Assembly: GCF_036588685.1 (NCBI RefSeq)
Contig: NC_086385.1
Coordinates: forward strand, 23,273,216 to 23,337,215
Source of the DNA: Mytilus trossulus
Taxonomy: Eukaryota
Reading direction: 5' to 3'
DNA length: 64,000 bases
The notes beneath the pieces are model-generated. The model had not been told where the DNA came from. It saw nothing but the letters and a program-made list of their open reading frames with translations, and did no database searches. This document shows positions 6,866-54,273 of the stretch, piece by piece. Positions within the stretch are counted from its first letter, which is position 1, and every line of letters starts with the position of its first letter. The position numbers were made by a program, and so were the translations under genes.

Positions 6866-7808
6866 GTATTGTCATTAAATCTATCAATTTGTAATTAATC
6901 AAATATAAGCAAGTTATTGTCAATAGATCGTATAACGAGGTGATTAATTGTTATTTTTGTTTGGAAACACATCCAGGCAGTCACGACGGCATGTTCCTTT
7001 CATCCACGTTATGAAGTAAGTTCAAATTAGGAGACCGGAAATGCAGATACTATTTTTATGAAAGAAAAGTTAAGAAAATCATGCCTTATAGTATATATAA
7101 TTATTTGATTGGCTAATACAGAAATCATTTGTCATAGTTTAATTTTGATGTTTTTTCCTAAAATTGGCAGAAGCGATGAATAACCGTAAAAAAAGAAGCA
7201 TCCATCGAACCGATGAATTACCCTTGTCGTACTCAATGACTCCCTTAAAAAATATGACGTCACCTAACGCCAGTAAAACAAAAACAAATATGACAACGGC
7301 CAGGTGAGAAGTCCATCAAGTGATGAAGAAGCTGACTATAATGAATGGCCTTTGCTCATTGTTGAGGGACGTACGGTGACCTATAGTTGTTAATTTCTGT
7401 GTCATTTTGGTCATTGGCAATCATACCACATCTTCTTTTTTTATACATACAAGACTTGGAAATTCATCTATAATGTCGACGATATCTCTTGTAAACGGCT
7501 CTTTTCAGGGCCATATATATTTCATAGAAAGAATCTACCTTTGTTGTCCTTTTACATTCGCGAAAAGTCAATAGACAGAAAATAATTTTCTCAGGTAAGT
7601 GTTTTTGATAGTAATATGTTTGTTCGGTATAATAAAACAATTATGCCCCCGTGAAAAAAATCCTTACTCGAAATATCAATATTAAATATTCACTTCCTCA
7701 GCGGGCCATTCTTGTATTTTATATAAGTCACTTTCTTCTCACAATGGAAAATGTGATTTATATGTGTTGGTGTTTGCTTCTAAAGCAAAGTATTTTTACT
7801 TGATTCAG

Positions 7809-8024
7809 ATTCCCTTATCCAAGCAATCAGACCACTGAGTTTGAAATTGTTGTCTCGGAAATTATTCCAGGCGGGATCGCATTTGACTCCGAACATAGAT
7901 ATCTATACTGGACTGAACCTATGGAAAGAAAGATAATGAGAAGTAATACAAATGGATCAAATATAACCAGAATTTTCAATGACACAGTCGAACCTGCTGC
8001 ACTTACCATTGACAAAGAGAATAG
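7809..8024 (+). CDS. YWTD beta-propeller gene, coding exon 3 (FPYPSNQ...PGGIAFDSEHRYLYWTE...RSNTNGSN...PAALTIDKENR)
   Basis: Canonical LDLR class B repeat (P-x-G-I-A-x-D-x4-YLYWTE; I-x-R-x3-NGS); ttcag| and AG|gttggt; phase 2-2. Confidence 0.9.
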
Positions 8025-9139
8025 GTTGGTAACTTTTCTAATTTTTTGATACAATAAAATGATCATATTGTAATACATAACTGCATAGCACGTTTTAGTA
8101 AACTAAAGTATTTCCTTACCAAAGGCTATCCGCGCGTATTGATATAACTTAAGATCGTTGACCAGATTTTCAGAAAATTTAGTTATTCGTTAATTTGTCT
8201 TATACGTAAACATGCTTTGAGACCTGTTGGTGACCTTCTGCTGTTGTTTTTTTATTTGGTCGGGTTGTTGTCTCTTTGACAAATTACCTATTTCCATTCT
8301 CAATTTTATTTAACATCATGTTATGATAACCGAGTACCAACTGTTATTTTGTATTCTAAAAACAACAGTTTGAGTGTTTCTCTAGTTTTTTTTAATAATA
8401 CGTCAGGAACTACAGGCGTAAAAACGAAAATCTGCAAATAATCAAACTGTATATATATGATCCGTATTGTCATGAAAATGCGATTACCCTCAACAGCGCT
8501 TAAGACCGAGAGGTCACGGTGTTTTGTCAAAGAGGATCAAATATCATCCCCAACCTAAGACAGATCGGGAACATTTTTGTCAGGTAGTGATATATACCTT
8601 ATTAAATCCTATTGCAGGAATTGTAGAAAAAGAAACCAATTTGAAGTACTCTCAACGACTTGTGTGTTCGTATCGGCTGACAGTGTCTGCTAACAGTCAA
8701 TAAAGAACCATCTGAATTCAAGTTAATTGTTAAATTTTACAACACTTACCGTTACATTAATGATATTTTCCAAAATTCTACAAAAGACTACCAAAATTTA
8801 CCAAAAGGTACTGATATTAAATTAAATCAAATATATGTATAAACTATAATAACTAACTGTCCTTTCCTAGATTTCGATTTTGTTCCTTTACCAATGAGAC
8901 ACAACATAAAACTTTAAGACAAAAGACCGTTTATCGGCTTCCTACTGTTAATTTTATTTCTATTGTGGACAGTGTCTATATTATCTAAATATATTCATCT
9001 GTCTGTAGTGAATTTGTTTTAATTGCAATGAACGCAGACTATCTATTACTGGTAATAATTAAGTCAATGATTTTGCCATCATACTTTTACTTTAAACCTT
9101 TAGTATAAACGTGAGAAGATGTTGTAATATACGATAACT

Positions 9140-10710
9140 CATCTGCATGTTCTACTAAAGAATTGTCCATTAAATTGACTAAAATTTTGTCCGCAGTTTA
9201 AGAGGGTCTTCATATATACTGTGAAACTATTTACTCGCGCAGTGGTATTAACCATATGTGGATTCTTAAAAACTCTTAAGAACTTTTTTAAAAATTTTAA
9301 TCTCTGTCTTTTTCTGAAGTTAGTTCTATCAAAACTTTAGATTTTTCAACCTTGTATACAACCATTACCCATGTGAAATTTAAAAACCGTCTAAAAGAAA
9401 TAATCCACAAAATGCTTTCCATCATAAACATGGTAGCATACGCTATAACTTTATCACTTTGGAATACCATAAGGCATATTTCGTTAATAAGGAACAAAAG
9501 GGTAAAACACATTACACAGAGGAACAAGTGATCAGTACATTTGTATGCCGGAGTTTCTTATTGGCAACATATTTGTTGAATTTTGAGGTAGACTTTTTCA
9601 ACAAATTGTCGGCATTCCTATGAGAACGAACTGTGCGCCTCTCCTTGCCGACTTCTTCTTTTTTTCATATGAATCGGAGTTCCTTCAGACACTTGTCAAA
9701 ATCAAGAAGAAATAAGAAGCCAGGTTATTTAATTTCACTTTCAGATATACTAATGATGTTCTTTCCATTAACAATCCGAACTTTTCTGATTGGGTTCCAT
9801 TAATATATATACCCACCAGAACTAGAAATTAAAGAGATAACAGACACGGCTTCATCCGCCTCATTTTTAGACTTATACCTCGAATTTGACATACACAGTC
9901 ATCTCAGTACCAGAATCTATGACAAACGAGACGATTTTAATTCTGAAAATTATCAATTTCCCCCACCTTAGTAGTAATATACCAACGTCACCTGCATTTA
10001 AAATATACATTACCCAACTTATTCGGTACTCAAGAGCTTGCAGCTCCTATTCAGACTTGTAAAACGTCACCAGTGTCTGAGCAGAAAGTTGATGAATCAG
10101 GTGTACGTAAAAAAACGTCCCGTCATTTTTCTACAAAAGTTCATTAGAAGGTACTAAGAACTTGTTGATAAATATTTCGTATCAACTTCACAAATAATAC
10201 AAGATGGTCTTGAAGTATATATTTTGCGTACTGACGTTGGTTATCATCTTAAAAACGTGTTATAGTTTTCTTTTATTTGTCTTTATTAATATTACTTTGA
10301 CTGTTAAGTCAGTTCTTTAAGATAGTCATTTGATGTGACTCTGTGCTTATGTAAAACATCATACTTTGAACGACAAAACTATTTCAGTTATTGATATTAC
10401 TTTTACTTATGGATCTTGTCATACTTTGAATGACAAAACTATTTTTGACATTTTTACTCTTTATGTATCACTCATCGTTGACAATGTAATGGAATTTGAT
10501 GCGACTGTCATATAAGTGAGAGGTTTAGCTAACTATTAAACCAGGCTCAATCCACCATTTTCTACATTAGAAAATGCTTGTACCAAGTCAGGAATATGAC
10601 AGTTGTTATCCATTCGTTTGATGTGTTGGGACTTTTGATTTTGCCTTTTGATTTTGGACCTCCTTTTTGAATTTTCCTCGGAGTTCAGTATTTTTGTGTT
10701 TTTACTTTTC
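9140..10710 (+). mobile_element. Decayed Penelope-like retroelement: reverse transcriptase remnant plus 3' tail, in intron 3 of the YWTD gene
   Basis: Frameshifted translations SSACSTKELS, SGINHMWILKNS, DFSTLYTTI, FQQIVGIPMRTNCAPLLADFF, FRYTNDVLSINNPNF (YIDD site), SFLDLYL, IYDKRDDFN. Tail 10480-10710 ends gagttcagtatttttgtgtttttacttt. Confidence 0.85.
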
Positions 10711-10920
10711 ATCACTAGAGACCAACTCACATAGGAGTGAAAAACTATAAGTTATCGTACGACCTTCAATGATTGACAAAACCCAAACCGCATAATCAGC
10801 TGTCAACGACCTGGAAATGAGTAGATACCTGTTAGTAAGTTTTGAACAAATAATCCTAAATGAAGCATCCTGGCTGAAATTAACATTCGAATTTATTTCT
10901 ATTTCTAAATACAATTTCAG

Positions 10921-11036
10921 ATGGATGTATTTTGGTCAAGGCATTCCCAACGGAACAATACACAAATTGTCACTGGACGATGAGGGACACCATATCATAA
11001 ATGACCTGGCATCGTGGGTGTTCGGTATATATGCAG
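10921..11036 (+). CDS. YWTD beta-propeller gene, coding exon 4 (WMYFGQGIPNGTIHKLSLDDEG...WVFGIYA)
   Basis: tttcag| and G|gtatga; phase 2 to 1; continues the DKENR-WMYF blade. Confidence 0.85.
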
Positions 11037-11790
11037 GTATGACATCTGCATTTAATGAAAAAGGAAAGATTGTAGGGGTCGTGCAGTATCATTGAAATGT
11101 TCGAAATAAAGTAACATTTACATGATAATTGCAATTTGAAAAAAAAATTGATACATTAAGTGATTAAATGACTAAGTAAGCTAAAATATTGAACGCATTA
11201 TATGTTTATCTTTTTTTTTATTTTCAAACTCTCAGCTTCATACATTTTAGGTCATGTTTTCGAATGAAACAAACCTGTGAACACCAATTTGATGCAAGTG
11301 TCCAATTTATTGAATTAAATTGTTGACACGGATTGATGATTGTAAATCCAAGAAGTGCTATGGTATCCTGAATTACTAGTATATCGCGTAACTTTAATTG
11401 TTTTTAGTCCGGCTTGCATTGACGCCTTAGCTTTGGATTGCTTGCCCCGGAAGTTGTATAATTCATGGATGTTTCAGTGAACATTTTAAGAAAATACGCT
11501 TTCATCTTTCTCAGGCTGAGTTAATGATTATGCTCATTTTTCTTTGTTATTTCCTTTAAGCGTTTAAAAATTCCTTTTGTTAATATCAAGTTTCAATCAG
11601 ACTAAAAGGGGTCATTAAAAAAATGCGTCCTAGAAGCACATACCTTTTTTTTTTAGTTCAAAGACTTTACATATTTTATTAGTGTTCTAGGTAAGATGTG
11701 ATGTTACATCTTAGTTCACGTGTTTGACAGTATGGACATGATGTGAGTTCATAGCAACCTGCTATATTGGCTTTACAACTATTATGACAT

Positions 11791-22400: not shown

Positions 22401-23864
22401 GTTTTGTTTTATTATTTCAAATATTTCAATAAATTTGACATTATTCCATGCTTAAACTTTTATGTTTTGAAGAAAAGGATGCTGGAAACAAATTTAACTT
22501 ACTCATTTTAAAAAGATGATAATTAGATAACTTCACATGGTGAAAGAAAATTTGAAGGATTTCCACAGCTTTTTTTTGTTGAATAGGTGCAATTTTAGTT
22601 ACTGAGACAGAGTGCAGTTTTGGTACTGTAATGTTATATAACCATAAGTGTGTATTGCAAAATAGGTTCAAATGTGAACCTGATAGTGATATAGTGATAC
22701 AGTTCTTGGTAGAGTGAAAATGTTTTTTGATCAGGTTTAAACTGATGCATAAAATATACAGGTGACTGTTGCAGCTTGAATTTTTAAGGATTTAGCCCAA
22801 AAACATGATAATCTCCCAAGTAATGTATGCCCTGTACATGTATATACCTATCAAAGTCATGGTATTATCATGGGTTATCATATTATATAATTAACTCCCA
22901 TCTTCCCATAAATCCAATTTTGGACAATATGGGAGCATACAATATATAGTTTGTACTTAAATGTTCTACTCAAACTCAAGTCTCCATTTATGATTGATCT
23001 TAGAGAGAGAAAACAAAACAGTTTGCCAAAGGGAGTCATGAAAATAAATTTGTAGCTGTGAAGTTGCTAACATGAGAGTACCCAAATTGCACAACTTTTT
23101 TTAAAAACCAGACGAATTGTGAATTAGGGGGGGGGGGGGGTAATCATCAGTTTTGAATTAGTCTGTGGGTTTCATGACTTACCGTGATCACATTCAACAG
23201 TATAACCAACGTCATTATCACTCTTCTTTGATATGGGGAATTAAGTGGCAGGTGAACATAAGTAGTCACGGTCAACCACAACCAGTGCACCGGAGTTTAT
23301 CCCGCATGCCGCAAGGCCATATTAAAATAAAATCCGAAATGTATTGCTTACAGAGTTTTTTACTGTGTTCCCATGACTGGACGGAACTTTTACACTAAAT
23401 ATGTTATCGTTTACTATAATTTTGTGACCTTTAAATGCAGTACCTGTGATTATTTAGGTAATTTGTTTTGACCTCACTGATAATGGAATGTTGTAGCAGA
23501 CGAAACATGGCGTCAGATGTTGTTGTCCTAACTTCGTTAATTTCCGTGGTACGATAAAATTTAAATAAACTACACAAGTTACCAAAATTTCTGAATTCTT
23601 GTTTTTGCAAACAAATAAAAATTCATGACGTATTTATCATCGAAATTATTCCGATCTGTCCCATTTTTTCAAGATCGCGTTGAAACGTTAAATTTGGCCG
23701 CCATTAAACAAAAATAATCGTTTGAGATTTTACGAGAGTGACGAAACTTTTCAGATGGGACATGTAGAGAGAGTTATCGTTCTTTATTCCAAAACGATGC
23801 TTCTACCATAAGTGCCAGCTAAAGCTGGCATATAATTTTGTTTATTTTCTTTGGTTACGTCTTC

Positions 23865-24262
23865 TGGTGTCGGACTCGTACTTCTCTTGGGCTGAATTTG
23901 ATGTGTGCGTATTGTTATGCAATTGCTTTTCTACATTTAATAGAGGTATTGGGGGAGGGTTGAGAACTCATAAACGTGTTTAACCCCGCCGCATTTTGTG
24001 CCTGTTCCAAGTCAGGAGCCTCTGGCCTTTGGTAGTCTTGTATTATTTTGATTTTAGTTTCTTGTGTGCAATTTGGAAATTAGTTTGGCGTTCATAACAC
24101 TGAACTAGTAAATATTTGTTTATGGGCCAGCTGAAGGCCGCCTCCGGGTGCGGGAATTTTTTGCTACATTGAAGACCTGTTTGTGACCGTCTGCTGGTGT
24201 TTTTCTTTGGTCGGGTTGTTGTCTCTAAGACACATTCCCTATTTCCATTTTCCATTTTATTT
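23865..24262 (+). repeat. ~400-bp interspersed retro-derived repeat (family B)
   Basis: Near-full copies at 39020-39418 (+), 51310-51700 (+) and 28705-29110 (-). 3' fragments at 5462-5605, 8218-8312, 26302-26345, 38200-38460 and 63545-63615. All share the end gacacattccccatttccattctcaatttt. Confidence 0.85.
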
Positions 24263-24559
24263 CTTTATAGAGTTTGTCCTTAGTGCCGTGTGGAGACAGT
24301 AGAGTGCCCCCCCCCCCCCCCGTGCTTCATGTTTATGCTCTTATAATATACTAGATTATGGAGTGTGTTTCCGAGCGAGAACTTCTCTAGTTCATTACTT
24401 CAGGAATATTTATCAAATTGTCGTATTTTAATACATTGTAGTATTCAGCCCCATTCTACTATATAGTCAGCTGTCAGTCGCTACCCTAATATACCCTGTC
24501 TTTTGTTAGGAAATTAATGCTAAAAGCTTTTGACATTTATAGCCGAATGATTTAACATT

Positions 24560-26345
24560 TTTACATAACTTAATTTATTGTATGCTGGTTCATATTCTGG
24601 ACGCCAGATTTTGCTCCTTTTTAATATAATTCACATACCCAAAACAAACATGAAGCTTAGAAATAGAAAAGCATTAAATACTAAACTCCTTCAAAGGGTA
24701 TCTTCACTCCTCAATCGTATCCTCAACCGATTATCTAAAAATACTACCATCGCTAACATTTTTAACAATAAAAATCGTGGTTACCCGTCTATCGATAAGT
24801 GTTATGCCAAAAAATGACTGACATGTCCACGACTTTCCTCTAACCATACGGTCAGGTCGACGTTTAATGGTCGCACATTTTCTTTAAATTTTGAAATTGA
24901 TATACTTGAAAAACAAACAGTATTGTTTATTCATTCATATGAAACAAACAGGGATGCGGTATTCAGAACGTAGGTGAAACTGAACGATATGTATGTAAAC
25001 GCACTCAAGAACATTTTAAAGACCCAATAAATTCAAAAATATCATTTATCAACACCTTAAGAAGCACAATCATCCTATTAAATATTTAGCAGTTCAACTT
25101 TAAGAAGTAGTAAATAAGTGAACATGGAGAATATCATTCAAAGTTTGTACGATCACGGAAAATAATTGAATTTAATTGGATTAGAAAGTTACAGACATTC
25201 TACCGTCTCGGTCTTAATGATTATATCATGGGAATTGGTAATATATCAAGAACCGATTCCGTTAACATTTTTGATATATTTTCTTAACCTATTCGTAATA
25301 TTTCGGACTTAATTTCTATTTCAAAAAACAACGACAGACATTATCTGTTAACAAAGCTCTGTTTATTACCGGTTACTGAGTTAAATTTTGGAGGATTGCA
25401 ATATAAAAAAGGAGATGTGGTATTATTGCCAATGAGACAACTTAATAGAAAAGACCAAAATGACACGAACTTTAACAACTATAGTTCACCGTACGACCTT
25501 CAACAATGAGCAAAGCCCATACCGCTAGTCAGCCATAAAAGGCCCCGATAAGACAATGTAAAACAATTCAAACGAGAAAACTAACGGCCTTATTTGTTTA
25601 TGTAAAAAAATGAACGAAAATCAAATATGTAACACATAAACAAACGACAACCACTGAATTACAGGCTCCTGACTTGGGACAGGCAGATACACAAATAATG
25701 TGGCGGGGTTAAAAATGGTAGCGGGATCCCAACCCTCTCCATAACCTGGGATAGTGGTATACCAGTACAACATAAGAACGAACTATAAAAATCAGTTGAA
25801 AAAGACAATTTCATATAGCAGTCATAAGTATGAAATAATTCAAATTATTATAGCATATTGTTATTCTTAACCATTTCTCAAAATTGATCGCCCTGAAGAT
25901 CATCAAAATAATTTATTAAATACAGTATGTCAATAAAGGTTTTGATTTTGTAAATATTGCCGGTATATTTAACGACCATTCTTTTAAAGAACAAATTCCT
26001 GGATATTTTGATAATACCCTATTATTCCCTATTATTTGTTATATTTACAAGAAATCTACCCGGAAATTTGTGTTTAGTTATAACGAATTGTGTAAAGATG
26101 TTAATATTAGAGAAAAATACACCCATTTCGTATAATTATAGTAATTCCAAATACATTTATGAATCCATTTTCCATGTTATAACAGGAGATCTTAACATCG
26201 TTTAAGATCGAGAGTTAAAATTATTCGTCAGTAGAGGACCTTTATATCGTCCCCCGTCAATTAATAATGTAATGAGTGTCGTAATATTATCCACGACTCA
26301 CTCTCTTTGACACATTTCCCATTTCCATTTTTAATTTTATTTTCC
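24560..26345 (+). mobile_element. Decayed Naiad-type Penelope-like element, copy 1: Zn-knuckle, N-terminal GIY-YIG endonuclease and linker, with TGA at Cys positions
   Basis: DKCYAKK*LTCP; T*KTNSIVYSFI*NKQGCGIQNVGET; RKIIEFNWIRKLQTFYRLGLND; HVITGDLNIV...SRGPLYRPP. Interrupted by another repeat at ~25400-25805. Confidence 0.8.
25400..25805 (-). repeat. Interspersed retro-derived repeat (family D tail) nested in Naiad copy 1
   Basis: aaaaag(a/g)agatgtggtatgattgccaatgagacaact...caacaatgagcaaagcccataccgc. Related copies at ~3840, 7330, 10715, 18700, 41350, 45520, 50090, 52920, 61250 and 63230. Confidence 0.8.
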
Positions 26346-28199: not shown

Positions 28200-28704
28200 T
28201 TTTTAAAGCATTTGCAATATGTATTGTTTATCATGTTTATTTGAGTAACTGTTACCAAATTAAAAAAAGAAATAAAAATAGACATGAAAAAATGTAGGAA
28301 TATATCTCCTTTTCTAAAGCTCTATTTTTATATCAATGTTTTGGTTCTGTTTCGTTTATATGTATTTCATTGGAGTTTTAAATAATCTTTTAGATTAGAG
28401 ATTGTACATTTTACATTGTTTAGTTGATATTTAGAGTAATGATAGAAAGATATTTGAATAATATATAGACTTTTATTTTTTTCAAAGATCTTCTCGACGT
28501 GTATATTTTATCTGAATATATCAGAAGTTATGAGAAAGGAATAGATGACAGTGGGTTAATTAGAGCAAAAAAATCAGACAACATCACCATGCTTAAACAA
28601 TTGACAAAAGGACAACGAACAAAACAAATAAGCACACGAAAATATTGTGTAACCCAAACGCCAACTCCAACCTTGCATTGAATTCTGTTTGATTTCGTTT
28701 CAAG

Positions 28705-31700
28705 ATGAAATTGAGAATGGAAATGGGGAATGTGTCAAAGACACAACAACCCTACCACAGAACAGACAACAACAGAAAGCCACCAATAGGTCTTCAATGC
28801 AGCAAAAAATTCCAGCACCCGGAGCGTCATTCAGCTGGCCTCTAAACAAATGTTAATACTAGTTAAGTGATAATAGACGTCAAACTAAACTCCAAATTAA
28901 ACACAAGAAACTCAAAGTAAAAAAAAGAAGGACAAGACTAACAACGGTCACACGCTCCTGACTTTGGACAAGTTCAAAAATGCGATTGGGTTAATTATTG
29001 TCAAAGGTACCAGGATTATAATTTAGTATGTTAAAAATGTTAATGAGTTCTCAACGCTCCCCCTTTACCTCTATCCAATGTTGAAAATTAAACGCAAAAC
29101 AGTACGCACATCAAATAAACAAAATGACAATTATACATAAATAACTGTGTGCGGTAACAGGGGGACAAGGCAACCTCACCATCTAGAAATAGATAATTAA
29201 CGATAGGAAATGAAAACTCATCTCTTTTATCATACCTTTTTTGTATTAAGCTGTCTGTTAAAGATATAGATATCAAAATCGAGGAAAGAGCAGTGGTCAT
29301 TGTGAGTAATTGCTTTTTTAAAATAAGTTCAACAGGATACATTTCTTTAGTATACATGTTCCGGACCATATGGGTATTTGAACCATACGCGTATGGTCAT
29401 GACCATATGCGTATGTTCATATGGTCCGACCGTACGCGTATGGTCAGACCATATGAGTATATACTCGTTTGGTTATAAACGGGCTGGACCATATGAGTAT
29501 TTGGACCATATAGGTATATTTTTCAATAATATGCATGAAAAAACTTTATGAAATAGCAATGATTGCTACATGCAATTGTATTGTTTACAATTCAAATAAC
29601 ATTAAATATTGATGACAAAGTTAGTTTTCGTCGCTAAATTGTTCTCTTGCATGGATGCGTAGGGTGACATTTACGTCCACACGGTACCATAGTTTTCTTT
29701 GGTCCTGGGTCATTCCGATGTGTCTACGGTGAAAAAGCTTTAGATCTCCAATATCGTAACATGACTGAAGTACATTATATCATTAGACAACTTTAAAAAA
29801 TAAACTAGTGTCCTTGCCTTTGAAGTCATTCGTATTTTTTTTTAAAACAAAACACGTATAAGTATAAACAATTATGAATATTGCACTGCTAATGCTTATC
29901 ATATTAAGTTTCATAAGTAAGCAATGTATTAGACTTTTCCGTCAGGTTATAGTAAAACAGTTGACTTCTTGTGTAACGTTTTATTAAAATATTTTTGGAA
30001 GTTATTTTCCCAGGTCGACATTTTGCCGTGCATTCACTCGTAATAACATATCGGTAATGAAAGAAAATGTGGTTAATATAGTTTTACTAGTGATGAAATT
30101 TAGTGTGTGACACTGCTTATTTTATTTTGCTAATCTTGTTATTCCTGATTTTTAATAATAAAAATGACCTTTGGTAGTGTCTTCTTAATGACGTGACAAC
30201 TAGACGGGTTATATAAAGAGGTAAGCATGAATGTACCTGTTAATTACCCCGACCATACGCGTACGGTCCGACCATACGCGTATGGTCGGACCATATGAGT
30301 ACATACCCATATGGTCATGACCATACGCGTATGGTCCAAATACTCATATGGTCCGGAACATACACACTGAAGTCATCATTATTGAGAGCCAATATATGAT
30401 CCAAATGTCTAAATGTATTTATTAATTTTTGGTATCTGATGTTGTTTCGAATGGTCTTTGCTGATTTTAGTCATACATTACAACTCATAGCAATACAGGA
30501 ACAGGTCCTTAATAAGTGGTGCACAGTTAGTTCTCATTGGAGTTACGATGACCTGACAATTTACGGTATCTACAAAGTGAACAAAAATGTTATTTAGTAA
30601 AATTCAAGGGCATTAAGTATGTCCAATTGAAAAAGTTCTTTTGTTTATTGCTACTAAAAAATTACCTGAAAGAGTTTGAATATATGTTATTACATTCTGA
30701 CTTGTTAAATGCCCATTTAATTAGGTGTGTTAATTTTTCTTAATAAGAATGTGAGACAATGTGGTATACTGGGTAGAAAAATCTAAACTTTGAACAGATT
30801 CAAAATCATAATCAAAATATAAGCATGTAATTTATCAAGTACTTCCAACGAGTTTTTGACACTCTAAACGTAACTCATTCAACTATTTTCAAATGTCTTA
30901 TTTGAACAATTTATTATCAGGTTTTTTATTGTTCCAACTGTACTGGTAAGAGGAATAGACGATTTAGTAGTGGAACAATGGCTTGAAGACGAAATAAGTC
31001 TATATCTATAGTTGTAAGGTGTTTTATGTAGCTTAAGAAGCCAGTACATAGACGGGACTTTCAATGTATTTGGTTCTACTTGTAAAGAGGTAGCTAAAAC
31101 TTTTATGTTTGTTACAGATGTCGTTTTCTGAAAATGGAGTCAGTTGGAATGTTGGTGAATTGGTGATTACTTTTTTCATAACCTCAATGTAACATTTACG
31201 TCTAACAATAATGATATCATTGTCAGGTTTATCGGCTGGGACAAAAACAAATTCCTTGGCTAGTTCTTTAAGTTTATGCTTGATGCGAGAAATAAGTTTG
31301 TTATGGCTGTTTTTAAGAGTAAAATGTTCTTAAAAATGTTGAATACGTATATCAAATATGTGCATTACTGAATTAAAAAAAAAATCAAAGATTTTTTGTC
31401 AGCTTTTCCCCGTTTTATCAATTTCAAACAGTACGTACGGAGTGAGCCGTGGATGATATTAAGACACTCATTCCAATTAATGATTGAAGGGGGCGATATG
31501 TAGGTTTATTACTGATACTATCATTAAGACTGAGAGGGTAGACTGTCTGTAAATGTTTAATCCAATTTAATTCAATTAGTTTTCGTGATCTTACAAACTT
31601 TGAATGCGATTTACCAGGCTGCTTATTTATCACTTCTAAAGGTTGAACTGTTAAATATTTGATAGGATGATTGTGCTCTTTATGGTGTTGATAAATGATA

Positions 31701-32110
31701 CTTTTGAATTTATAGGGTCTTTATATATCGATATAAATGTTCTCGCGTGCGTTTAGATAAATATCGTTTAGTTTCAGCTACGTTCTGAATACCGCATCCC
31801 TGTTTGTTCCAGATGATTAAATAAATAATACTGTTTGTTTTTCAAGTATATCAGTTTCAAAATTTAGAGAAAATGTGCGACCATTAAAAGTGGACCTTAC
31901 CGTATTGTTGGTTGAAAGATGGGGACATGTAACTCTTTTTTTTTCGCATAACACTTATCGATAGGAGGGTAGCCACGATTTTTATTGTCAAAATTGTTAG
32001 CGATGGTAGTATTTTTAGATAAGCGGTTGAAGATAAGATTGAGACGTGTAGATACCCATTGAACGAGTTTAATATCTAATATTTTTCCATTTTTACACAT
32101 ATATAAGGAT
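28705..32110 (-). mobile_element. Decayed Naiad-type Penelope-like element, copy 2: GIY-YIG endonuclease upstream of RT, ending in a family-B tail
   Basis: Order on the minus strand: DKCYAKK (31950); IIYLII...CGIQNVAET (31830-31770); ELNWIKHLQTVYPLSLND (31575-31520); FVFVPADK (31250); YWLLKLHKTPY; DFSTQYTTL; MRTNCAPLI; LDHILALNNDDF; SFLDFDI; YDKRDEFSFPIVNY (29230). Confidence 0.85.
29357..30360. mobile_element. Ginger-like non-autonomous DNA transposon inserted in the RT of Naiad copy 2
   Basis: TGT...ACA termini; >100-bp TIRs built from ACCATA(CGCG/TGAG)TATGGT units; 4-bp TSD TACA (29353-29356 and 30361-30364). Removing it restores the RT frame FSVYTKE. Confidence 0.8.
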
Positions 32111-32399: not shown

Positions 32400-32705
32400 A
32401 TATTATAAGCAGTGTGGATTGTCGTACCCCTTTTTTGACATTTGTATGTACAAGATCTGTTTGTTTTGTGTACACATCTTTGTCAATATAATTGCATTTG
32501 ATGCGACTGTACTACAAGTGGGAGGTTTAGCTAGCTTTAAAACCAGGTTTAATCCATCATTTTGTACATAAGGATATATATGTACCAAGCCAGGAATATG
32601 ACATTTGTTTATTCTTTTGATGTTTGAGATTTTTATTTTTGCCATTAGATCTTGCCTTTTTAAATTCGTAGCAGAGAACATTATTTTTTGTATCCTACTT
32701 TTTCT
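32400..32705 (+). repeat. Retroelement 3' tail (family A)
   Basis: Homologous to 10478-10710. Other copies at 41093-41312 (-), 48210-48303 (-), 53930-54035 (-) and 57565-57755 (+). Confidence 0.75.
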
Positions 32706-34487: not shown

Positions 34488-34708
34488 TTAAGATATATTC
34501 ATCAGTTCCAACTGATCTGCACGTCTAAACGTACTTTTCCGTCTTGAGATAAACGTCCTGTTATTAAAAGTTAGAAATATGATCGGATTCACCATACTGT
34601 TGAGTGGTGCGAGTGCTATAAGAATATCAAACCATCCGCCGTAACCTAGATCACCATACAGATTCAAAAGCCCGGCTAGGATAAAAGGCATCCAACAAAC
34701 GATAAAAG
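34488..34708 (-). CDS. Peptide GPCR, coding exon 6 (end of TM6, TM7, C-tail: FIVCWMPF...ALAPLNSMVNPIIF...ELMNIS*)
   Basis: CWxP and NSxxNPxxF motifs; catttcag| acceptor in phase 1. Confidence 0.93.
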
Positions 34709-37097
34709 CTGAAATGTAAGAGAAAACATAATGATTAGCTAATTTAATGTAATATTTAGGTACAATCATACTTAGTGACAAAGTGTAAAAAAATATATCG
34801 ACAGGGAACAAACTACAATGTATGCTTAATAGCAAATTATATTGATCGTTTAAAACGGAACCTTAGAATACATTCTTACACACATTTTCGTTTTTTTAAC
34901 AGTAGGTACAAAAAATAAATGCAGGTATTAAAGTATCAAAAATATCACAATGTTATTAACAGGAAAGGACACCAAGATCCTCAAAGTGTACCATTTTTGA
35001 GAGTATGTGAAATTGCAATTTCTTCTCCTTTATCGCTGTTTGTATAAGACATATGAAGACTACAATGTATGTTTGCACTTGACTTTATCAAAAGAAGAAC
35101 TTTTTGAAGTTAGTACTGATTTGAAATGCCTAAGACTGAAATATTGAAAGCATAATAGAATGATGCCTTCTAAAAGTTTGGAATAATGCGTCTCTGTTTG
35201 TATCTGTTCAAAAAATAATAAATAATAAATACTGCCTAACGTCCAATATCAAATTATCATTTTAATGCGAATCGTTTAGAACGAAACTTTTAATTGGATG
35301 ATGGATGGCTAGCTTTCTAACTCTAACAGTCCTTAACAAAGGACAGTCACCATAATTGTGGTTTCCGATTTTTGTTGTTTTAAATTGCTGAAAAAAGTTA
35401 AAGAAAAAGGTCACATGTTATGCCTCAAAATGCTTTTTGGTGTCAATATTTGTAACATTCAGAAGCGTCCGAAAAAAAAGATACGCCTTGTATTTATCGT
35501 TGACATCCAGGGTATACCTATTCCGTCAAATTGTTTAGATGACAAAGATGAAGTAACAGGTTATTAGAGGTATTTTATATATGGCATTTAAATTCAAAAA
35601 TTTTTACCAAAATCGAATGTATCTTAATTTGTTGCATTTTCATAATTATAACAGTATTTTGTTTTAAAATTGTTTTCAATTCAAAATAAAATCTAAAGAT
35701 TAAAAGACATTACAGTTATCTCCTCATGGTTGATATATTATGACTTACATGTTTTAGATCCTTACCAAACTCAAATTACGATGTTTTTTTCAAAGAAAAT
35801 AAACAAAGTATCAGATAAGGGTACCGTGAGTGTATTTATCCCACTTGAAAGACTAATGCCTATTTACCAATCTTTAATTTAATGATAAAACGACGTAGAA
35901 ATTATTTAAAAACATTTCAATACATAAGGGGATGACAGGAGTTTTCTGGTTACAGATTAACCTTTTGGTAGCTTAGTTGTTCAGTGCAAATTATGTATAC
36001 AGACTTATTAATCTATTCTTTTTCCTGACATTTTTTGTTATTGTAAATTTGAAAAAAAATAATGAAAAATCTTTATAAAAATCCAAAAAGACATTTAATC
36101 CAAAACATTTTTGTTAAAGATACCAGCGGTTTATTAAATAAATCCAAAATAAATTAAAACCGGCGATTCATTGAGGTCAATGACATTAGATATTCATATC
36201 CGATGTTCAATCATTTGCACAGTGCGATGGAAATGTAGTGTTAAAATATCATTTTCTAATTCAATTTACAGCCAAGTTTGAATGTTTGTCAATAAAGTGT
36301 GATAAATAAAAGAAAATACAATCTGAAAACCAATCCTGCGAGTTTGTATGTCATTTTATAGAATGCATTTAATTATATTCAATTTTATAAGGAACTTTCA
36401 ATTTCCTCTTCTCTTGACACTCTATGAGGATGGATGACCATTTTATTTTAAAAGAAAAATATTGTTGACGAAAAATAAAAAGAGAAACGCTGTTATCGTT
36501 AATGGCAATCTTCTAGCATTGTAAAATACGACAAAAGGACTATACGACAATACAATCGATGAAATAATGATATTACATTTCGGTACGGGAAGGTTAATAA
36601 ACAAGTATTTGAAAGACCCTTTTCATGCTTAAATCACGGAAAATTGGATTGCATGGATAATAAGTTTTATGTAATGAATAACTCCTTTTGAATTTGATAT
36701 GCAAACTAAAGTTATATCAAACTGATTTGCCAATCAAATGGCATTGATGAAATTCTAAATAATGTCTGAACGACGTGAGAAATATCATAATTGTTTTTCC
36801 TAAGGTTTCGTTTTTTTATTTGATGTTGTCAAGTAATGGTAACGTTTACTCTCTCTAATATACAATATAATTCCGTAATGCTGCTATATTTGTTTTCGTT
36901 AGACCCATCTTTTTAATATTAATTTTCAGAAGTCAGAAAAAAAATAACCATTCATAATATTTTGCGTTTAACCATATCTACGTTGGTATACAGGTTATGA
37001 ATATTTTCTTATGAGGACTGCTTTAATACATAGTATTTGTGCATAGAGACATTTGATATAGAGGTTGAAATACGCTATCCGTAATATTAGCAATGCT

Positions 37098-38885: not shown

Positions 38886-39765
38886 CTTTGATCTGATATT
38901 GTGTCTATATAGTTTTATCAATTCGAAAATAAGAAATGGAATGAATCCTCGATTTCCCTTTAGTTTTGAAGACAAATTAACGGTATACTTTACTCATTAT
39001 ATGCTTATTTTTGTTACTACATCTTCTGACATCTGACTCGGACTTCTCTTGAACTGAATTTCAAATGTGCGTATTGTTATGCGTTTACTTTTCTTCGCTA
39101 TCTAGAGGTAGAGGGGGAGGGTTGAGATCTCATAAACATGTTTAACCCCGCGTTATGTTTGCACCTGTCCCAAGTCAGGAGCCTTGTTAGTCTAGTATTA
39201 TTTTAATTTTAGATTCTTGTGTACAATTTGGAAACTAGTATGGCGTTTATTAATACTGAACTAGTATATATTTGTTTAGGGGCCAACTGAAGGACGCCTC
39301 CGGGTGCGGGAATATCTCGCTTCATTGAAGACCTGTTGGTGACCTTCTGCTGTTGCTTTTTCTATGGTCGGGTTGTTGTCTCATTGACACATTAACCATT
39401 TTCATTCACAATTTTATTCCAAAATTTGATTATTATAATATGTTTAAATATTTTTCGTAACCAACATCATATTGTTACCGGTGTCAACTGGATTGAAATT
39501 AATTCTGATAAACATGAAAAAAATGGGTGTTAACTGTAGGTGATGTCTGCTTAGTTTTTATGTTGTGTTTTATATGATGCTATTTATCTTTTGGTCGTTC
39601 TCATTTTCTTTTGATGTCAATGTCGGTTTGTTTTCGCGTCATTAATATAAATATATATTTGCTGTCTCCAGACTGTCATTTAAAAAAGTTCATAAAACGT
39701 GATGATTTAATTTTTATCACAAATCACGATTACTGTATACAAAGTATAGGAACAATAGCTCTTAC

Positions 39766-40626: not shown

Positions 40627-40715
40627 AAATCAAAATAGTTTTAAAGACAAACAAGAAAAAAGTTTAAGAGGTGAGAAAAAATAAATAAAAAAATAAAACT
40701 AATCTTCAAACGTAC

Positions 40716-41053
40716 CTCTCGAATGCCTCTGAGATCAGGTGTACATATATTGCATTCACAAATAGTAAATATTTTGGTCCAAACAAGAATTGGGATGTTT
40801 ACTAAAAACGACAATCCCCATGGTATTGTAATCATCCATGTTTTGTATCTTCGTCGCTGTCGGAGAATTGCAAGTGGATGTAACACACATAACAATCGGT
40901 CCACAGCTATTGTCACTATAAGGTACGTTGAGGCGAACAACGAAACATTACTGAGATAAAACTTCAACTTACACATGGTAAGTCCTAACATCCAGTTTGA
41001 AAAGAAATGATTGATAATCAGAGGAAATATATGAAAAACTGCTACGGCGATAT
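40716..41053 (-). CDS. Peptide GPCR, coding exon 3 (TM2-ECL2: DIAVAVFHIFP...WMLGLTMCK...IAVDRLLCVLHPL...CECNICTPDLRGIRE)
   Basis: WxxGxxxCK, DRL (DRY variant), TM4 W...IP; ttgtag| and GAG|gtacgt; phase 1 to 0. Confidence 0.95.
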
Positions 41054-42086
41054 CTACAAAGAAAAGTGTGTTTTAAAATTAGGTCGGTTATTTACTGTAA
41101 AACGTAAAATCGTAAAAATACTGAACGCTGAGAAAAAATACAAAACGTAAAGTTCCTTATACATTTTTTTATAAAATTGCAAAATCAAAATCTCAAACCC
41201 TAAACGTATGGATAACAACTGTAAAACTCCTGATTTGGTACAGGCATTTCTTATGTAGAAAATGGTGGATTATACATAGTTTTAAAGCTAGCCAAACTTC
41301 TCACTTGTATGAAATAATAAATTTCGGGGTTGGTCTTGACTCTGTTTTGAGGACAGTACCTTGACCTGTAATGGTTTACTTTTATATTGTGACTTGGATG
41401 GAGAATGTCTCATTGGCACTCATACCACATCTTCTCATATCTATATAGAAAAATACAAGCAGTGATTACCTGTAGGACAAGATAAATATGAACATTATCA
41501 TTATTTATTTTGTTTCCTGTAAACAGTTGTTTATCGAAAAGAAATATTGGTTTTAATGTTTGTGACCAGAAAGAGATCATTTCCCAAAAGCATCAAGTAT
41601 TGCAAAAAATACATGTAGCAATATCGCTAACTAGACTATATTCTCTCTGAAAATTCATAATATGGTGACTATGTTGAATGCATCGAACCAATGAACTAGA
41701 GATGAAGGAAACAACAGATTTGACAATAAGGAACGGTTAAAAAATAGTTTTACGACAAAAGAGATAACCAAGAGTTACAAATGGTGAAGTTGAAATCATC
41801 CCTTCGAAAATTTTACAGACGCCATCACGAGTAGGTTGACTGTTACTGAATATTCTTTTTCTCAGATAATATCGGATATGTTCCTCACGTCGTATCTACA
41901 GTTAAGTTTTAGTTTTGGTTCGTGTTTCCTATGCTTTAGTGTTCTATCTATCTTATGTTCTATTGATTTTCGTTTTGTTTTAGCCATCGCGGTGTCATTT
42001 TGTTTGTGATTTTAGAATTTGATGATTTTGAAGGTCCATCTTGTATCTTTTTTTTTTAAATATATATAACAAATATAAAAAAATAC

Positions 42087-48098: not shown

Positions 48099-49499
48099 CA
48101 AGAGCCTGTGTCGTTCATCTGATTCTATTTGGGATTTTGAAATATTATTAAAAAATATAAAAAAATTGTAACTGATAAGTATGATGATGTTATAGGCCAA
48201 ATGTAGTTTAAAGTAAAATCACAAAAATACTGAACTCGAAAATCAATTCGGAAAGTCCATAATCACATGGCAAAATCAAATAACAAAACGCATCAAAAAC
48301 AAAATAGGCCAAATGTAGTTTGATATTGTTATGTTTGGATTTATTTTATTTATTAGTTCTCTTAAAGAAGACATTTGTATGTATTTCCTATAGGGTACCA
48401 TGTTAAAATAAGCATCCGTCTGGCGACCATCTTGGATAATAGATCGGGTACAAAGTAACTACACTTGGTAAGCACATCATAAGGAACATTCATGCTTTGT
48501 TTGGTTTCATTTTATTCCGTGGTTCTCTAAAAAAAGACATTTGTATGTATTTCCTATAGGGTACCATGTTATAAAAAAAGCCCCAATCTGACGACCATCT
48601 AGGATAATGGATCGGGTACAAAGTAACTACACTTGGTCAGCACCTCATAAGGAAAATTCATGCTATGTTTGGTTTCGTTTTATTCCGAGGTTCTCTAAAA
48701 AAAGACATTTGTATGTATTTCCTATAGGGTCCTATTTAAACTAAGTCCCCCCTGGAGGCCATCTTAGAAGATGATGGATCGACTACAAAGTAACATCACT
48801 TGGTCAGCATCTCATAAGGAACGTTCTTGCTATGTTTAGTTTCAATCCATTCAGTGGTTCTCTAAAAGAAGACATTTGTCTGTATTTCACATAGGATCCT
48901 ATGTTAAACTTAGTCCCCCGCTGGCCGCCATATTGGATGATGGATCGGCTACAAAATAACAACACTGGGTAAGCACATCATAAGGAACATTTATGCTATG
49001 TGAGGTTTCATTCCATTCTGTGGTTCTCTAAAAGAGGACATTTGTGTGTATTTTCACATAAGGTCCTTTGTAAAACTGTGTCCCCCGCTGGCGGCCATCT
49101 TGCAGAATGGATCGGCTACACAGTAACAACACTTGGTCAGCACTTCATAAGAAACATTCATGCCATGTTTGATTTCATTCCATTAAGTGGTTCTCTAAAA
49201 AAGACATATGTATGTATTTCCCATAGGATCCTATGTAAAACTAAGTCCCCAGCTTGGCGCCATCGTGAATGATAGATCGACTACAATGTAAAAACGTTTG
49301 GTCAGCACCTCATAAAGAACATTCATGCTATGTTTGGTTTCGTCCCATTCAGTGGTTCTCTAGAAGAAGTTCAAATTGTAAAAAGTTCACGAAGACGACG
49401 ACGAACGACGACGAACGACGACGAACGACGGACAACGATGGACGACGGACAAGTGATGAGAAAAGCTCAGTTGGCCATATAGGCCAGGTGAGCTAAAAA
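48099..49499 (-). mobile_element. HINE-like element carrying about six 166-168-bp satellite monomers
   Basis: 'gacat' anchor at 48370, 48536, 48704, 48871, 49037 and 49203; GAC/GACGA microsatellite at ~49390-49450; hairpin AGCTCAGTTGGCC-ATATA-GGCCAGGTGAGCT at ~49464-49494. Confidence 0.85.
48210..48303 (-). mobile_element. 94-bp 5'-truncated retro-insertion (family A tail) with 18-bp TSD
   Basis: ATAGGCCAAATGTAGTTT at 48192-48209 and 48304-48321. Confidence 0.85.
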
Positions 49500-50937: not shown

Positions 50938-52251
50938 TAAAAAGAGTTATAAAGCAAAACAAGTACAAAGTTGAAGAGCTTTTAGGTTTAAAAAATTTAG
51001 AAAAAAATATATTAAAAAGTAATTATTACATATCAATAAAAAAAAGTATGTCCATCCTGCATTTATCGAGAGATTTCGCCAGAGTGATTTACATAGAATT
51101 AAAATGCATCTTTTGACAAGTGAAGTGATTGATCACAGAATTAATCAATAAATGTATCATCTCTCCAGACGAAACATTTACTACTCTCTAATACTGACAT
51201 AGTCCTTGTCTCAAGAGTAATTACTCATGAGTGCGTGTTAAGACAGTTTTCTTGTACATTCAACTGGAAAATAGTTACCAACCGCGTCAAGATGTGGAAT
51301 TCACTTGACACCAGACTCGGACTTCTCTTGAATTGAATTTTAAATGTACGTATTGTTATGCATTTACTTTTCTACATTTGCTAGAGTTATAGGGTGAGGA
51401 TTGAGATTTCATAATCATGTTTAACCCTGCCGCATTTATGCGACTGTCCCAAGTCAGGAGCCTCTGACCTTTGTTAGTCTTGTTTTTTTTTTAATTTTAG
51501 TTTCTTGTGTACAATTTTGAAATTAGTATGGCGTTCATTATCACTGAACTAATATATATTTGTTTAGGGGCAAGCTGAAGGACGCCTCCAGTGAGGGAAT
51601 TTCTCGCTACATTGAAGACCTGTTGGTGACCTTCTGTTGTTGTTTATCTATGGTCGGGTTGTTGTCTCTTCGACACATTTCCCATTTCCATTCTCAATTT
51701 AACGTAAAATCGTGGGATGCTTTTGATGAAAACATATGTTACAATTCAATTAAAGAGGCATGTCAATAACTTATTTGACTCAAGGAAACAAACCAAAAAT
51801 TATAAGTAATACAAGATATACACTTGTTTATTATATAAACTTTAATTGTTTTAGTTTGACCGTAGATCAGTACAAATGCATACCTGACAAGAGAAATTAA
51901 CACACGTCCTTCTATACACATTTTCAAAAAAATGGTTTATTGGTTGTGTGAACAGAAATTTCCCGGATTTTCGTGTCTTAAACTTTAATAGTTTCTCGAT
52001 TGTTTGTAACTTGTGAATGTGTATCGAATAGGTAATAAGTGCAAATAGAAAGAGATCTGTTGGACATTGTGTAACTGATCCTTCATGGGCTTGAAATTTA
52101 TGCAGACGCGAAACTTGATGAAATCACAAAAACTCATTCACAAAAAAAACACATCTAATTCAAAGATTTAGATGAACCGCATCATATCTTATTAACAGTT
52201 TATGGTTCCTTAGCTTGCTTCCTTATTCATGTGAAGTGTGTTTAGTACAAC

Positions 52252-52413: not shown

Positions 52414-54273
52414 TGTATAGAGACAAAACAGTATTTCAATTCTAGTTAAACTAATGGTTAGAGTCTATAAAACAGTATGTCAACAGATCAAAATAGGTAA
52501 ACGAATAGTGTTAAAGTTACAAAAAACAACCTTATAGTGTTAGATATAATTCTACTGCAGTTGGAATTATATATTTTGACATCAGCTTGAAACTATTGTG
52601 CGTGCTATGTCTAATTGGAAATTCCTTTAAAAAGAGCATTTGAACTTCTGTTAAATTCAAATCAATCCGGATTTCAATGACATATATACCGGCAACAGTA
52701 AAATATATGAAGAATATTAGATCCTTTTAGATTAAGTTAACATCAAATGACAGTTTTGACATTGACATAAAACTAACGACATTAATAGTATACCATTTAT
52801 AGAAGGGTGATGCTAATAAGATTGACGGGAAAATTGTATTCTAACGTACCACTTAGAGATATGAGATATTGCTCCGTATCCTTGCTAAATTTGATATCAA
52901 CAAGCAAATATCATAAATATAAAAATAAGGAGATTTGGTATGATTGCCCATGACACAAAAACCCACCTAACTTCAAATGAAGTTAATGTAACAGTTATAC
53001 GCAACCGTACAGCCAATAAGAAAGCCACATATCGTAGAGTCAACTAAAAGAGTCTTCGATTTTTTTTTATAAGAATTCAATTAAGGAAACCATCTGTTGA
53101 AAGCAAGTGTTCTTCAAAATAATCGACCTTCAAAGTTAACCTGTATAATTAGTTGTATTATTATGTTGTAAGCCACATGACTTGCTTCTCATCCTTAATA
53201 AACTTTAATAACCCTTTATTGGTCCGTTGGGGATTACTAGAGAATAGTATAGCGACTTATCAGCACAACACTTTCCCAACCAGCGTAAGTATTCAAATAA
53301 CCAATTAAACATGATGTCCTAATTTTCAGTAGATGTAAGCCCCCATGATACTCTTTGAAATTTAATCAAACCCACCCATTCGCAAGCGTCACCATGTGTC
53401 AGCGTGTAACCAATCACAACTTTATCATTTGCCTAAGTTTCAAAGATAGAGTAATTAGCAGTCGAAGCACTTAACTTTATTCGATACATTTTACACTTTT
53501 TCGATTTCATGCGTCACTTCAAGTAAAGGCGTGTTGCTATTATGCAGGTAAATTGAAGGGCAACATGTATTTTTAATGGATCATTCTTTTGCAATTTAAA
53601 AACCTACCAATCATTTAATTTTCAAAATTAATGTGTATATGAGTATACAGAGAACAGACACATACTTTATTACAAACAAAAAGGAAACAGTTATTAAATC
53701 AACTAAATAAAAACAAATCGACTTGAGTTTGTCTAGAACAGTTGTTGAAATGGGAAACATTACTGCACTCTTTACTCTGGCTTCTGAAACATCATAAATG
53801 ACACTTATATCAATACACAGTGTTGATAACACTGTTTACATACAAAAGAAATGAACTAATTAATAAACAAGTTATTCAATTTCTTGATTATTCTGAAAAG
53901 AAAATATGCGAAAACTAACGATCAACAATAGTAAAATCACAAAATACTGGATTCCGATGAATATTCAAAAAGGAAAGTCCCTAATCAAATGGCAAAATCA
54001 AAAGCTTAAACATATCAAACGATTGGATAACAACAATCATAATGACAAGAGAAACAACGCAAATTTAGAATGCAATATATCCGTTAGATGCGTAAAGGAC
54101 AGTTAGCCCAAAAAAGATGAAACAAATTTCATGTCAACGATTTTGAATAAAACAAATACATTATATGACTTTACTAAAAAAATGAACGTTATGATCCATA
54201 ATAATATCTTAAAGTGTATGAGATGAAAAGTCTCTTTTTCATGTTACATTGACATCATTTTGCTACGTTTTAT

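Follow-up and report, generated by a model that had tools for sequence, protein, structure and literature searches.

The 64-kb window, that is, the whole stretch of 64,000 nucleotides of Mytilus trossulus DNA analysed here, contains two dead copies from a family of Naiad (Penelope-like) retroelements that is abundant in Mytilus, and several lines of evidence suggest that the four in-frame UGA codons of this family are likely read as selenocysteine (Sec) by way of a predicted SECIS element. We put the probability of this reading at about 0.88. The initial annotation, made from the sequence alone, implied that a selenoprotein-encoding transposon of this kind would be novel, which does not hold: selenoprotein Naiads as such are already known, and the basic phenomenon is published (Craig et al. 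2021). What is new is the mussel host, the combination of four Sec sites, the high abundance (nine separate 3' termini of the family in the 64 kb, three of which belong to copies 1 and 2) and the grouping of the family with the clam-type elements in a single Sec clade that has good support.

Both copies are decayed members of one family (table 1), and inverted 32095-31513 of copy 2 aligns with 24658-25228 of copy 1 at 85%. In copy 1 the endonuclease region has suffered frameshifts, TAA stops and a small internal deletion, both Cys of the CxC motif are now TAT, and beyond 26303 the RT, stop and SECIS are deleted. In copy 2 the endonuclease is joined to the pre-RT region across a deletion (L035 1088-1750; L035 is a full-length metagenome contig of the family, described below), and a second deletion has removed the thumb, stop and SECIS (L035 3106-3700). 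As both 3' deletions extend over the SECIS region and the stop codon, the window copies lack a SECIS, and neither Rfam nor our own model finds one in the window (best E 0.5). The insertion that splits the RT of copy 2 looks non-autonomous and is flanked by an apparent 4-bp target duplication.

Table 1. Features of the two Naiad copies in the window; sites are numbered as in the intact 1002-codon frame, and percentages are identities.
Feature	Window positions	Strand	Match
Family 3' end immediately 5' of copy 1 (pseudo-LTR arrangement)	23835..24262	+	89% to L035 3721-4093, continuing into L035 1-1157
Copy 1, 5' leader	24263..24649	+	within unbroken match of L035 1-1157 to window 24131-25298, 86%
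Copy 1, decayed ORF start, Cx4Cx2C knuckle, GIY-YIG endonuclease and CCHH motif	24650..25401	+	
Site 1: TGA at knuckle Cys2 position, codon 55	24815..24817	+	
Site 2: TGA at Cys position preceding GIY strand, codon 86	24907..24909	+	
Site 3: TGA at CCHH Cys1 position, codon 97	24940..24942	+	
Copy 1, later insertions: other dispersed repeat and inverted family 3'-end piece (25663-25800)	25402..25801		
Copy 1, linker, CxC motif, GPxY motif	25802..26303	+	89% to L035 1327-1827
Final 42 nt of family 3' end, terminating copy 1	26302..26343	+	93%
Copy 2, decayed endonuclease	31513..32095	-	88% to L035 510-1087
Copy 2, pre-RT region, DKA motif, RT motifs up to YLDD	30357..31515	-	86% to L035 1751-2910
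1-kb insertion of unrelated sequence, ends inverted and palindromic, splitting copy 2 RT	29357..30360		
Copy 2, last RT piece (YDKRD-F motif)	29154..29357	-	
Copy 2, remaining 3' UTR and family 3' end	28702..29145	-	

The three TGA codons that the initial annotation placed at Cys positions of copy 1 are indeed present, at 24815 (C-Y-A-K-K-stop-L-T-C), 24907 (T-stop-K-T-N-S-I-V-Y) and 24940 (I-stop-N-K-Q-G-C-G-I-Q-N-V-G-E-T). Its statement that all stops are TGA is correct within 24790-24985 and fails beyond, where copy 1 has six premature TAA over 408 aligned codons. For copy 2 it reported TGA at the second site, TGG at the third and AGA after an RT 'ADK' motif, and we recover all three codons: site 2 is TGA (31844-31842), site 3 is TGG (31811-31809) and site 4 is AGA (31203-31201) at the position of codon 522, for which the family has TGA. 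The 'ADK' motif is properly the decayed Naiad DKA motif. Site 1 of copy 2 is also AGA and sits within a slipped A-run.

In copy 1, site 1 is out of frame with sites 2 and 3 because of a 1-nt deletion. This deletion and six derived substitutions are common to copies 1 and 2 when these are compared with both L035 and another contig of the family, L033, over 565 sites, and the shared derived changes include an alteration of the catalytic motif, QYVG to QNVG/A. Since the copies share derived defects, we count them as one observation, and copy 2 was rejected as independent evidence. It is likely that both descend from a single copy that was already defective.

A HMMER search with the DKA fragment returned 59 proteins, two of which stop exactly ahead of site 4 and many of which have W there, which we take to be TGA translated with a different genetic code. 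Six such proteins, once aligned, led to metagenome contigs (the best 80 of 237 relatives) and to 12 loci in genome contigs. Three of the metagenome contigs, L033, L035 and L036, are full-length and align with the 3'-end repeat as well as with the two copies of the window, with 84-89% identity in the coding parts, and each contains one open endonuclease-RT frame of 1002 codons from Met within an element unit of about 4.0 kb. After the Met, TGA occurs in these frames at codons 55, 86, 97 and 522 only, that is, at knuckle Cys2, the pre-GIY Cys, CCHH Cys1 and DKA+8 (sites 1-4); L036 has one extra TGA 5' of the Met. The Cys-only Naiads have Cys at sites 1-4 in 16/16, 17/18, 17/19 and 25/25 covering rows. 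Given that four of four TGAs among 1002 codons fall on Cys positions of Cys-only Naiads, their placement is not due to chance. Protein word searches with window fragments gave no match, an exact 21-nt pattern had 0 matches in the metagenome and genome contigs searched, viral contigs yielded no relative, and plasmids no match.

Contigs of four public runs (four coded organisms) could be placed on copy 2 (1042, 445, 1895 and 2855 contigs, respectively). The letter that makes TGA accounts for 94, 100, 98 and 98% of the depth at site 4 and for 99, 99, 100 and 100% at site 3, the QYVG motif is restored in 98-100%, and the TGA of site 2 is retained in the loose-end consensuses of the runs. L035 agrees with 40 of the 40 majority letters listed for the four runs (L033 and L036 with 39/40), and hence L035 represents the family consensus in those runs. 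At site 1, where run depth collapsed, support comes from the three contigs (two of them near-identical), from L029/L030 and from copy 1. Neither of the two outcomes that the initial annotation had named as refuting its claim is observed: TGA is the family codon at all four sites in L033, L035 and L036 and, for sites 3 and 4, in the four runs as well, and the full-length sequences have a SECIS-like element (see below). Between L035 and L033, dN is 0.028 and dS 0.275 (dN/dS 0.10) with all four TGAs kept, and the family frame is under purifying selection. The term 'fossil' used earlier therefore suits the window copies and does not suit the family, whose frame is intact.

One may ask whether these intact frames arose in assembly as consensuses of old copies, such that no selenoprotein is made today. 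We regard this as a serious but rather unlikely possibility. The window copies have diverged by 11-16%, no single genomic full-length mussel copy is among the sequences examined, and the ends of L035 and L036 overlap, as is typical of collapsed repeats, for which reason these two contigs may be collapsed assemblies and not single live copies. However, there are two subfamilies 7% apart, each with an unbroken 1002-codon frame, at the dN/dS given above, and L033 and L036, which come from different assemblies, are 99.9% identical. Moreover, extinction would bear on present activity and not on the reading of the UGAs as Sec.

The predicted protein has the architecture of a Naiad. In the L035 frame, IIY/YVG, R-H, E and N motifs lie at 91-193 and RT motifs at 575-848, such that the GIY-YIG endonuclease precedes the RT in a single ORF. 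The knuckle is C50-x4-U55-x2-C58, in agreement with the Naiad pattern Cx2-5CxxC, and the CCHH motif consists of U97, C102, H138 and H144, as in Naiads; each of the knuckle and CCHH residues is conserved in 33-40 of 36-42 rows when TGA is scored as Cys. The linker between endonuclease and RT contains RKNRSHGRR at 218, SCNCS at 384, GPKY at 420 and DKA at 512, corresponding to the KR-rich block, CxC, GxKF/Y and DKA motifs of Naiads, and the pseudo-LTR or tandem arrangement, the 5' truncation and the length (3.4-4.4 kb in Naiads) agree as well. The UGA codons that the family consensus has in frame at conserved Cys likewise match the clam type of selenoprotein Naiad. The Pfam GIY-YIG model matches 25 of the 31 aligned endonuclease rows at E<=0.1, L035 not being among them, and Pfam searches of the window fragments and of the full L035, L033 and L029 proteins returned nothing relevant; the Pfam RT models likewise gave no match to L035, the RT identity of which rests on motifs and alignment. 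A structure model of the endonuclease (pLDDT 85) has as its best fold match the GIY-YIG domain of I-TevI (probability 1.0, E 0.014), with none reaching E<=0.001. By sequence, no relative of L035 with a solved structure was found, and a profile gave weak matches to I-TevI only (E 0.012). With Rfam models, no hammerhead was detected in L033, L035 or L036 (E<=1) or in the L035 3' region (E<=10), in line with the lack of a canonical hammerhead ribozyme that characterizes Naiads. The family 3' end contains a conserved block (window 23940-24020, 39100-39190 and 51390-51470; L035:3830-3915), in which Rfam found no match to twister.

If the UGAs are decoded as Sec, a SECIS would be expected downstream of the frame, and the full-length contigs have a SECIS-like element in the 3' UTR, shortly 3' of the stop, as detected by both Rfam and our own model. 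It begins 52 nt 3' of the L035 TAA and comprises AUGA/AA/GA motifs and two helices. When 16 loci were searched with Rfam at E<=1, there were 10 matches, nine of which were to SECIS_1; all nine lie close to where the ORF ends, in sense orientation and in TGA-bearing loci, and the four Cys-only loci of that run had no SECIS_1 match. The scores (L035, 32.3 bits; L033 and L036, 30.9 bits each) lie below the gathering cut-off of 35, and a search of the 3' region alone gave E 1.7e-4. Across 12 elements, both partners vary in 15 of 18 pairs, and 90% of cells are paired versus 38-48% in slid controls, with the proviso that the structure was derived from Rfam's alignment and the same sequences, which favours the pairing score.

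Our own model was built from nine non-mussel elements and run on the window and all 92 loci, and it recovers the mussel element at E about 1e-4. Frames of at least 540 aa are present in 61 of the 92 loci, 50 of which have at least 150 nt downstream; among these 50, the model matches 23 of 27 TGA-bearing loci as against 0 of 23 Cys-only loci. The 23 comprise seven training sequences, three weak or distant matches (L013, L025, L042) and several near-duplicate rows. Of the four misses, L027 is found by Rfam and, with filters off, by the model at E 0.01, and L029, which has five TGAs, reaches E 1.0 only. Folding energy alone is not significant (z -1.9, -0.05 and -1.4). Together, the family codons and the SECIS-like hairpin support the earlier prediction that three or four UGAs are read as Sec, the number being four.

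In eukaryotes, UGA is recoded as Sec by the combined action of the SECIS, SBP2, eEFSec and Sec-tRNA. We propose that the host Sec machinery, directed by the predicted SECIS, would recode the four UGAs of the mussel element. Unrecoded translation would end at codon 55, ahead of both enzyme domains, so that all activity would be expected to depend on four recoding events. The resulting protein would nick DNA and use target-primed reverse transcription to copy its own RNA. The products would be, for the most part, copies truncated at the 5' end and pseudo-LTR tandems such as that at 23835-24262. As to what the Sec residues do, the conserved Cys, Sec and His residues form, by conservation counts, three sets of four (C50-U55-C58-U86; U97-C102-H138-H144; C385-C387-H399-U522), H121 having been kept out of the ligand sets as the likely catalytic His. 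Because of these three sets of four, we suggest, less firmly than the Sec reading itself, that the Sec residues probably act as ligands of metal (zinc) and not as redox catalysts.

The wider distribution of TGA was examined in a tree of the RT region with 38 rows (15 near-identical and six long-branch rows having been dropped from 59), rooted internally on a Cys-only Naiad. In this tree, 26 of the 27 TGA-bearing rows group together as a clade (SH-aLRT 99.8, UFBoot 97). The remaining row, L042, attaches to it weakly (71/48), which is also the value for monophyly of all TGA-bearing rows, and other trees support that grouping weakly as well (0.78 and 75). The mussel family falls in a subclade with L027, L029, L032 and L047 (99.9/100), and in the sister family, L029, which is 69% identical in the RT region, the same four TGAs are kept. 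Among TGA-bearing rows (36, duplicates included), TGA is present at DKA+8 in 34/36, at CCHH Cys1 in 20/22, at the pre-GIY Cys in 17/22, at the first CxC Cys in 18/33 and at knuckle Cys2 in 7/20, which indicates that Sec positions shift within the clade; L018 has TGA at DKA+8 only, and L027 and L047 have Cys there. A TGA at the first CxC Cys is found in L029:473-3481, L002, L004, L006, L025, L042 and L081-L084, and this position is not among the Sec sites listed in the accessible part of Craig et al. 2021 (PMC8557442). Bacterial MAG contigs contain L081-L084 as intact tandem arrays, which likely represent animal DNA in the bins. Five loci closely related to the mussel family (L027, L031, L034, L039 and L047) have Cys at DKA+8 yet give SECIS-like matches (E 0.009 to 0.8), and these are possible Sec-to-Cys reversions.

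The exchange of TGA and Cys among relatives, seen at five of the nine sites scored, suggests that selenium is perhaps dispensable at any one site. It is also what one would expect if the UGAs were SECIS-read and served to limit output through slow recoding, with Cys working equally well or being partly inserted. That entire Cys-only Naiad clades thrive and that three UGAs lie inside the first 97 codons are consistent with this idea, which we nevertheless think unlikely: one UGA anywhere would suffice as a brake, whereas all four occupy near-invariant Cys positions, and the clade has TGA at still more conserved Cys sites, for example in CxC. Extended further, the ligand reading would place one of the most abundant transposons of mussel genomes in a single old and widespread marine clade of Sec retrotransposons in which Sec is a structural zinc ligand at three metal sites, Cys and Sec flip back and forth, and environmental selenium, as the initial annotation had supposed, gates jumping; we advance this fuller picture as a speculation that is unlikely to be correct in its entirety.

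Two further readings of the TGAs have almost nothing left in their favor. That they are ordinary mutations in dead copies, one step from TGT/TGC, might be argued from the six other premature stops and several frameshifts of copy 1 and from the defective ancestor common to both copies, but it is refuted by the presence of TGA at all four sites in the otherwise open family frame, and other Cys codons of the copies became TAT/TAC, not TGA. That TGA encodes tryptophan or another ordinary residue might be argued from W at site 4 in many close database proteins and TGG at site 3 of copy 2, but two such proteins also have W at an off-frame TGA, which points to a gene caller translating TGA as W, the host locus is mussel nuclear, and L035 (7 TGG, 25 Cys codons, 4 TGA) writes Trp as TGG seven times and has TGA at Cys positions only, which refutes it.

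Other features of the window include exons of a rhodopsin-family, mesotocin-receptor-like GPCR at 40644-41072 and 34491-34862 (- strand), the first of which shares 97% identity with a mesotocin-receptor-like protein of Mytilus galloprovincialis (one match among 422 candidates). A second abundant repeat family (32472-32702, 10470-10709, 41100-41312, 57567-57745 and 53927-54041) looks similar, on inspection by eye, to the 3' end of another Naiad consensus in the literature. Tandem repeats occupy 48326-49369 and 1-1125, the unit lengths being about 167 bp and about 500 bp, and open frames with YWTE-like motifs at 7800-8050 and 10800-11100 are presumably exons of an LDL-receptor-related gene. Among the loci collected, L049:202-4122 and L053:298-4188 (and, by alignment, L051 and L056) are Cys-only Naiads whose single ORF extends beyond the RT to include a domain of the ubiquitin-specific protease type (Pfam UCH, E 1e-33).

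Selenoprotein-encoding transposons were previously known from four families only, and the present family adds a high-copy one to a farmed and much-studied genus whose published Naiads are cysteine-only. In M. galloprovincialis, 86,269 Penelope copies are given in the accessible part of Murgarella et al. (PMC4792442), without division into families. Elements of this kind are taken to be broken by annotation pipelines. The family provides a natural setting in which to ask why several Sec residues are used where metal binding is apparent, and whether the rate of transposition can be set by a trace nutrient.

The four Sec-Naiads described in the accessible part of Craig et al. 2021 (PMC8557442), two from clams and two from spiders, have SECISearch3 grade A elements, and as they stand against 54 families in its table, the statement in the initial annotation that 'many' Naiads encode selenoproteins was too strong. 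Besides Craig et al., our search found no report of mussel or later Sec-Naiads, Repbase, Dfam and subscription journals lying outside its scope, and four short 3'-end motifs of the window had 0 matches in the accessible part of the Craig et al. supplement, in which line breaks could mask one.

The mussel family most closely recalls the clam elements Naiad_Mmer (Mercenaria mercenaria) and Naiad_Scon (Sinonovacula constricta), which, as far as the accessible sequences and text of Craig et al. extend, likewise combine, in one ORF, a GIY-YIG domain at the N-terminus and an RT at the C-terminus. Comparison with these published elements reveals a common UGA at the pre-GIY Cys, CCHH Cys1 and DKA+8 (sites 2-4) with identical U-x10-U-x4-C spacing, and in all of them the SECIS adjoins the stop. 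They differ in that knuckle Cys2 is UGA in the mussel family and Cys in both clam elements, that the mussel N-terminus is shorter, and that the predicted mussel SECIS lies 52 nt past the stop and has a small apical stem, whereas the clam SECIS is described as type I and lies 1-21 nt past the stop or overlaps it. L010, whose 3' UTR is close to that of Naiad_Mmer by eye, groups with the mussel family in one clade (99.8/97), with about 50% identity in the RT region. The clam-type elements are part of a larger clade. The spider elements from Stegodyphus, Naiad_Sdum and Naiad_Smim, have UGA at the pre-GIY Cys and DKA+8, as in the mussel family, and Naiad_Sdum also at knuckle Cys2, which in the accessible part of Craig et al. 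2021 (PMC8557442) is a Sec site in a spider only. Unlike the mussel family, the spider Naiads also have UGA at knuckle Cys1 and retain Cys at CCHH Cys1, and the same source attributes to them an independent origin. Finally, the published mussel Naiads, Naiad_Mgal, Naiad_Mcor, Naiad_Bpla and Naiad_Mphi, come from the same hosts or host family and have the same domain order, but they are without a Sec note in the accessible table and their endonuclease sequence differs from that of the window family; L052, which is near-identical to Naiad_Bpla by eye, falls outside the Sec clade, with 42% identity to L035.
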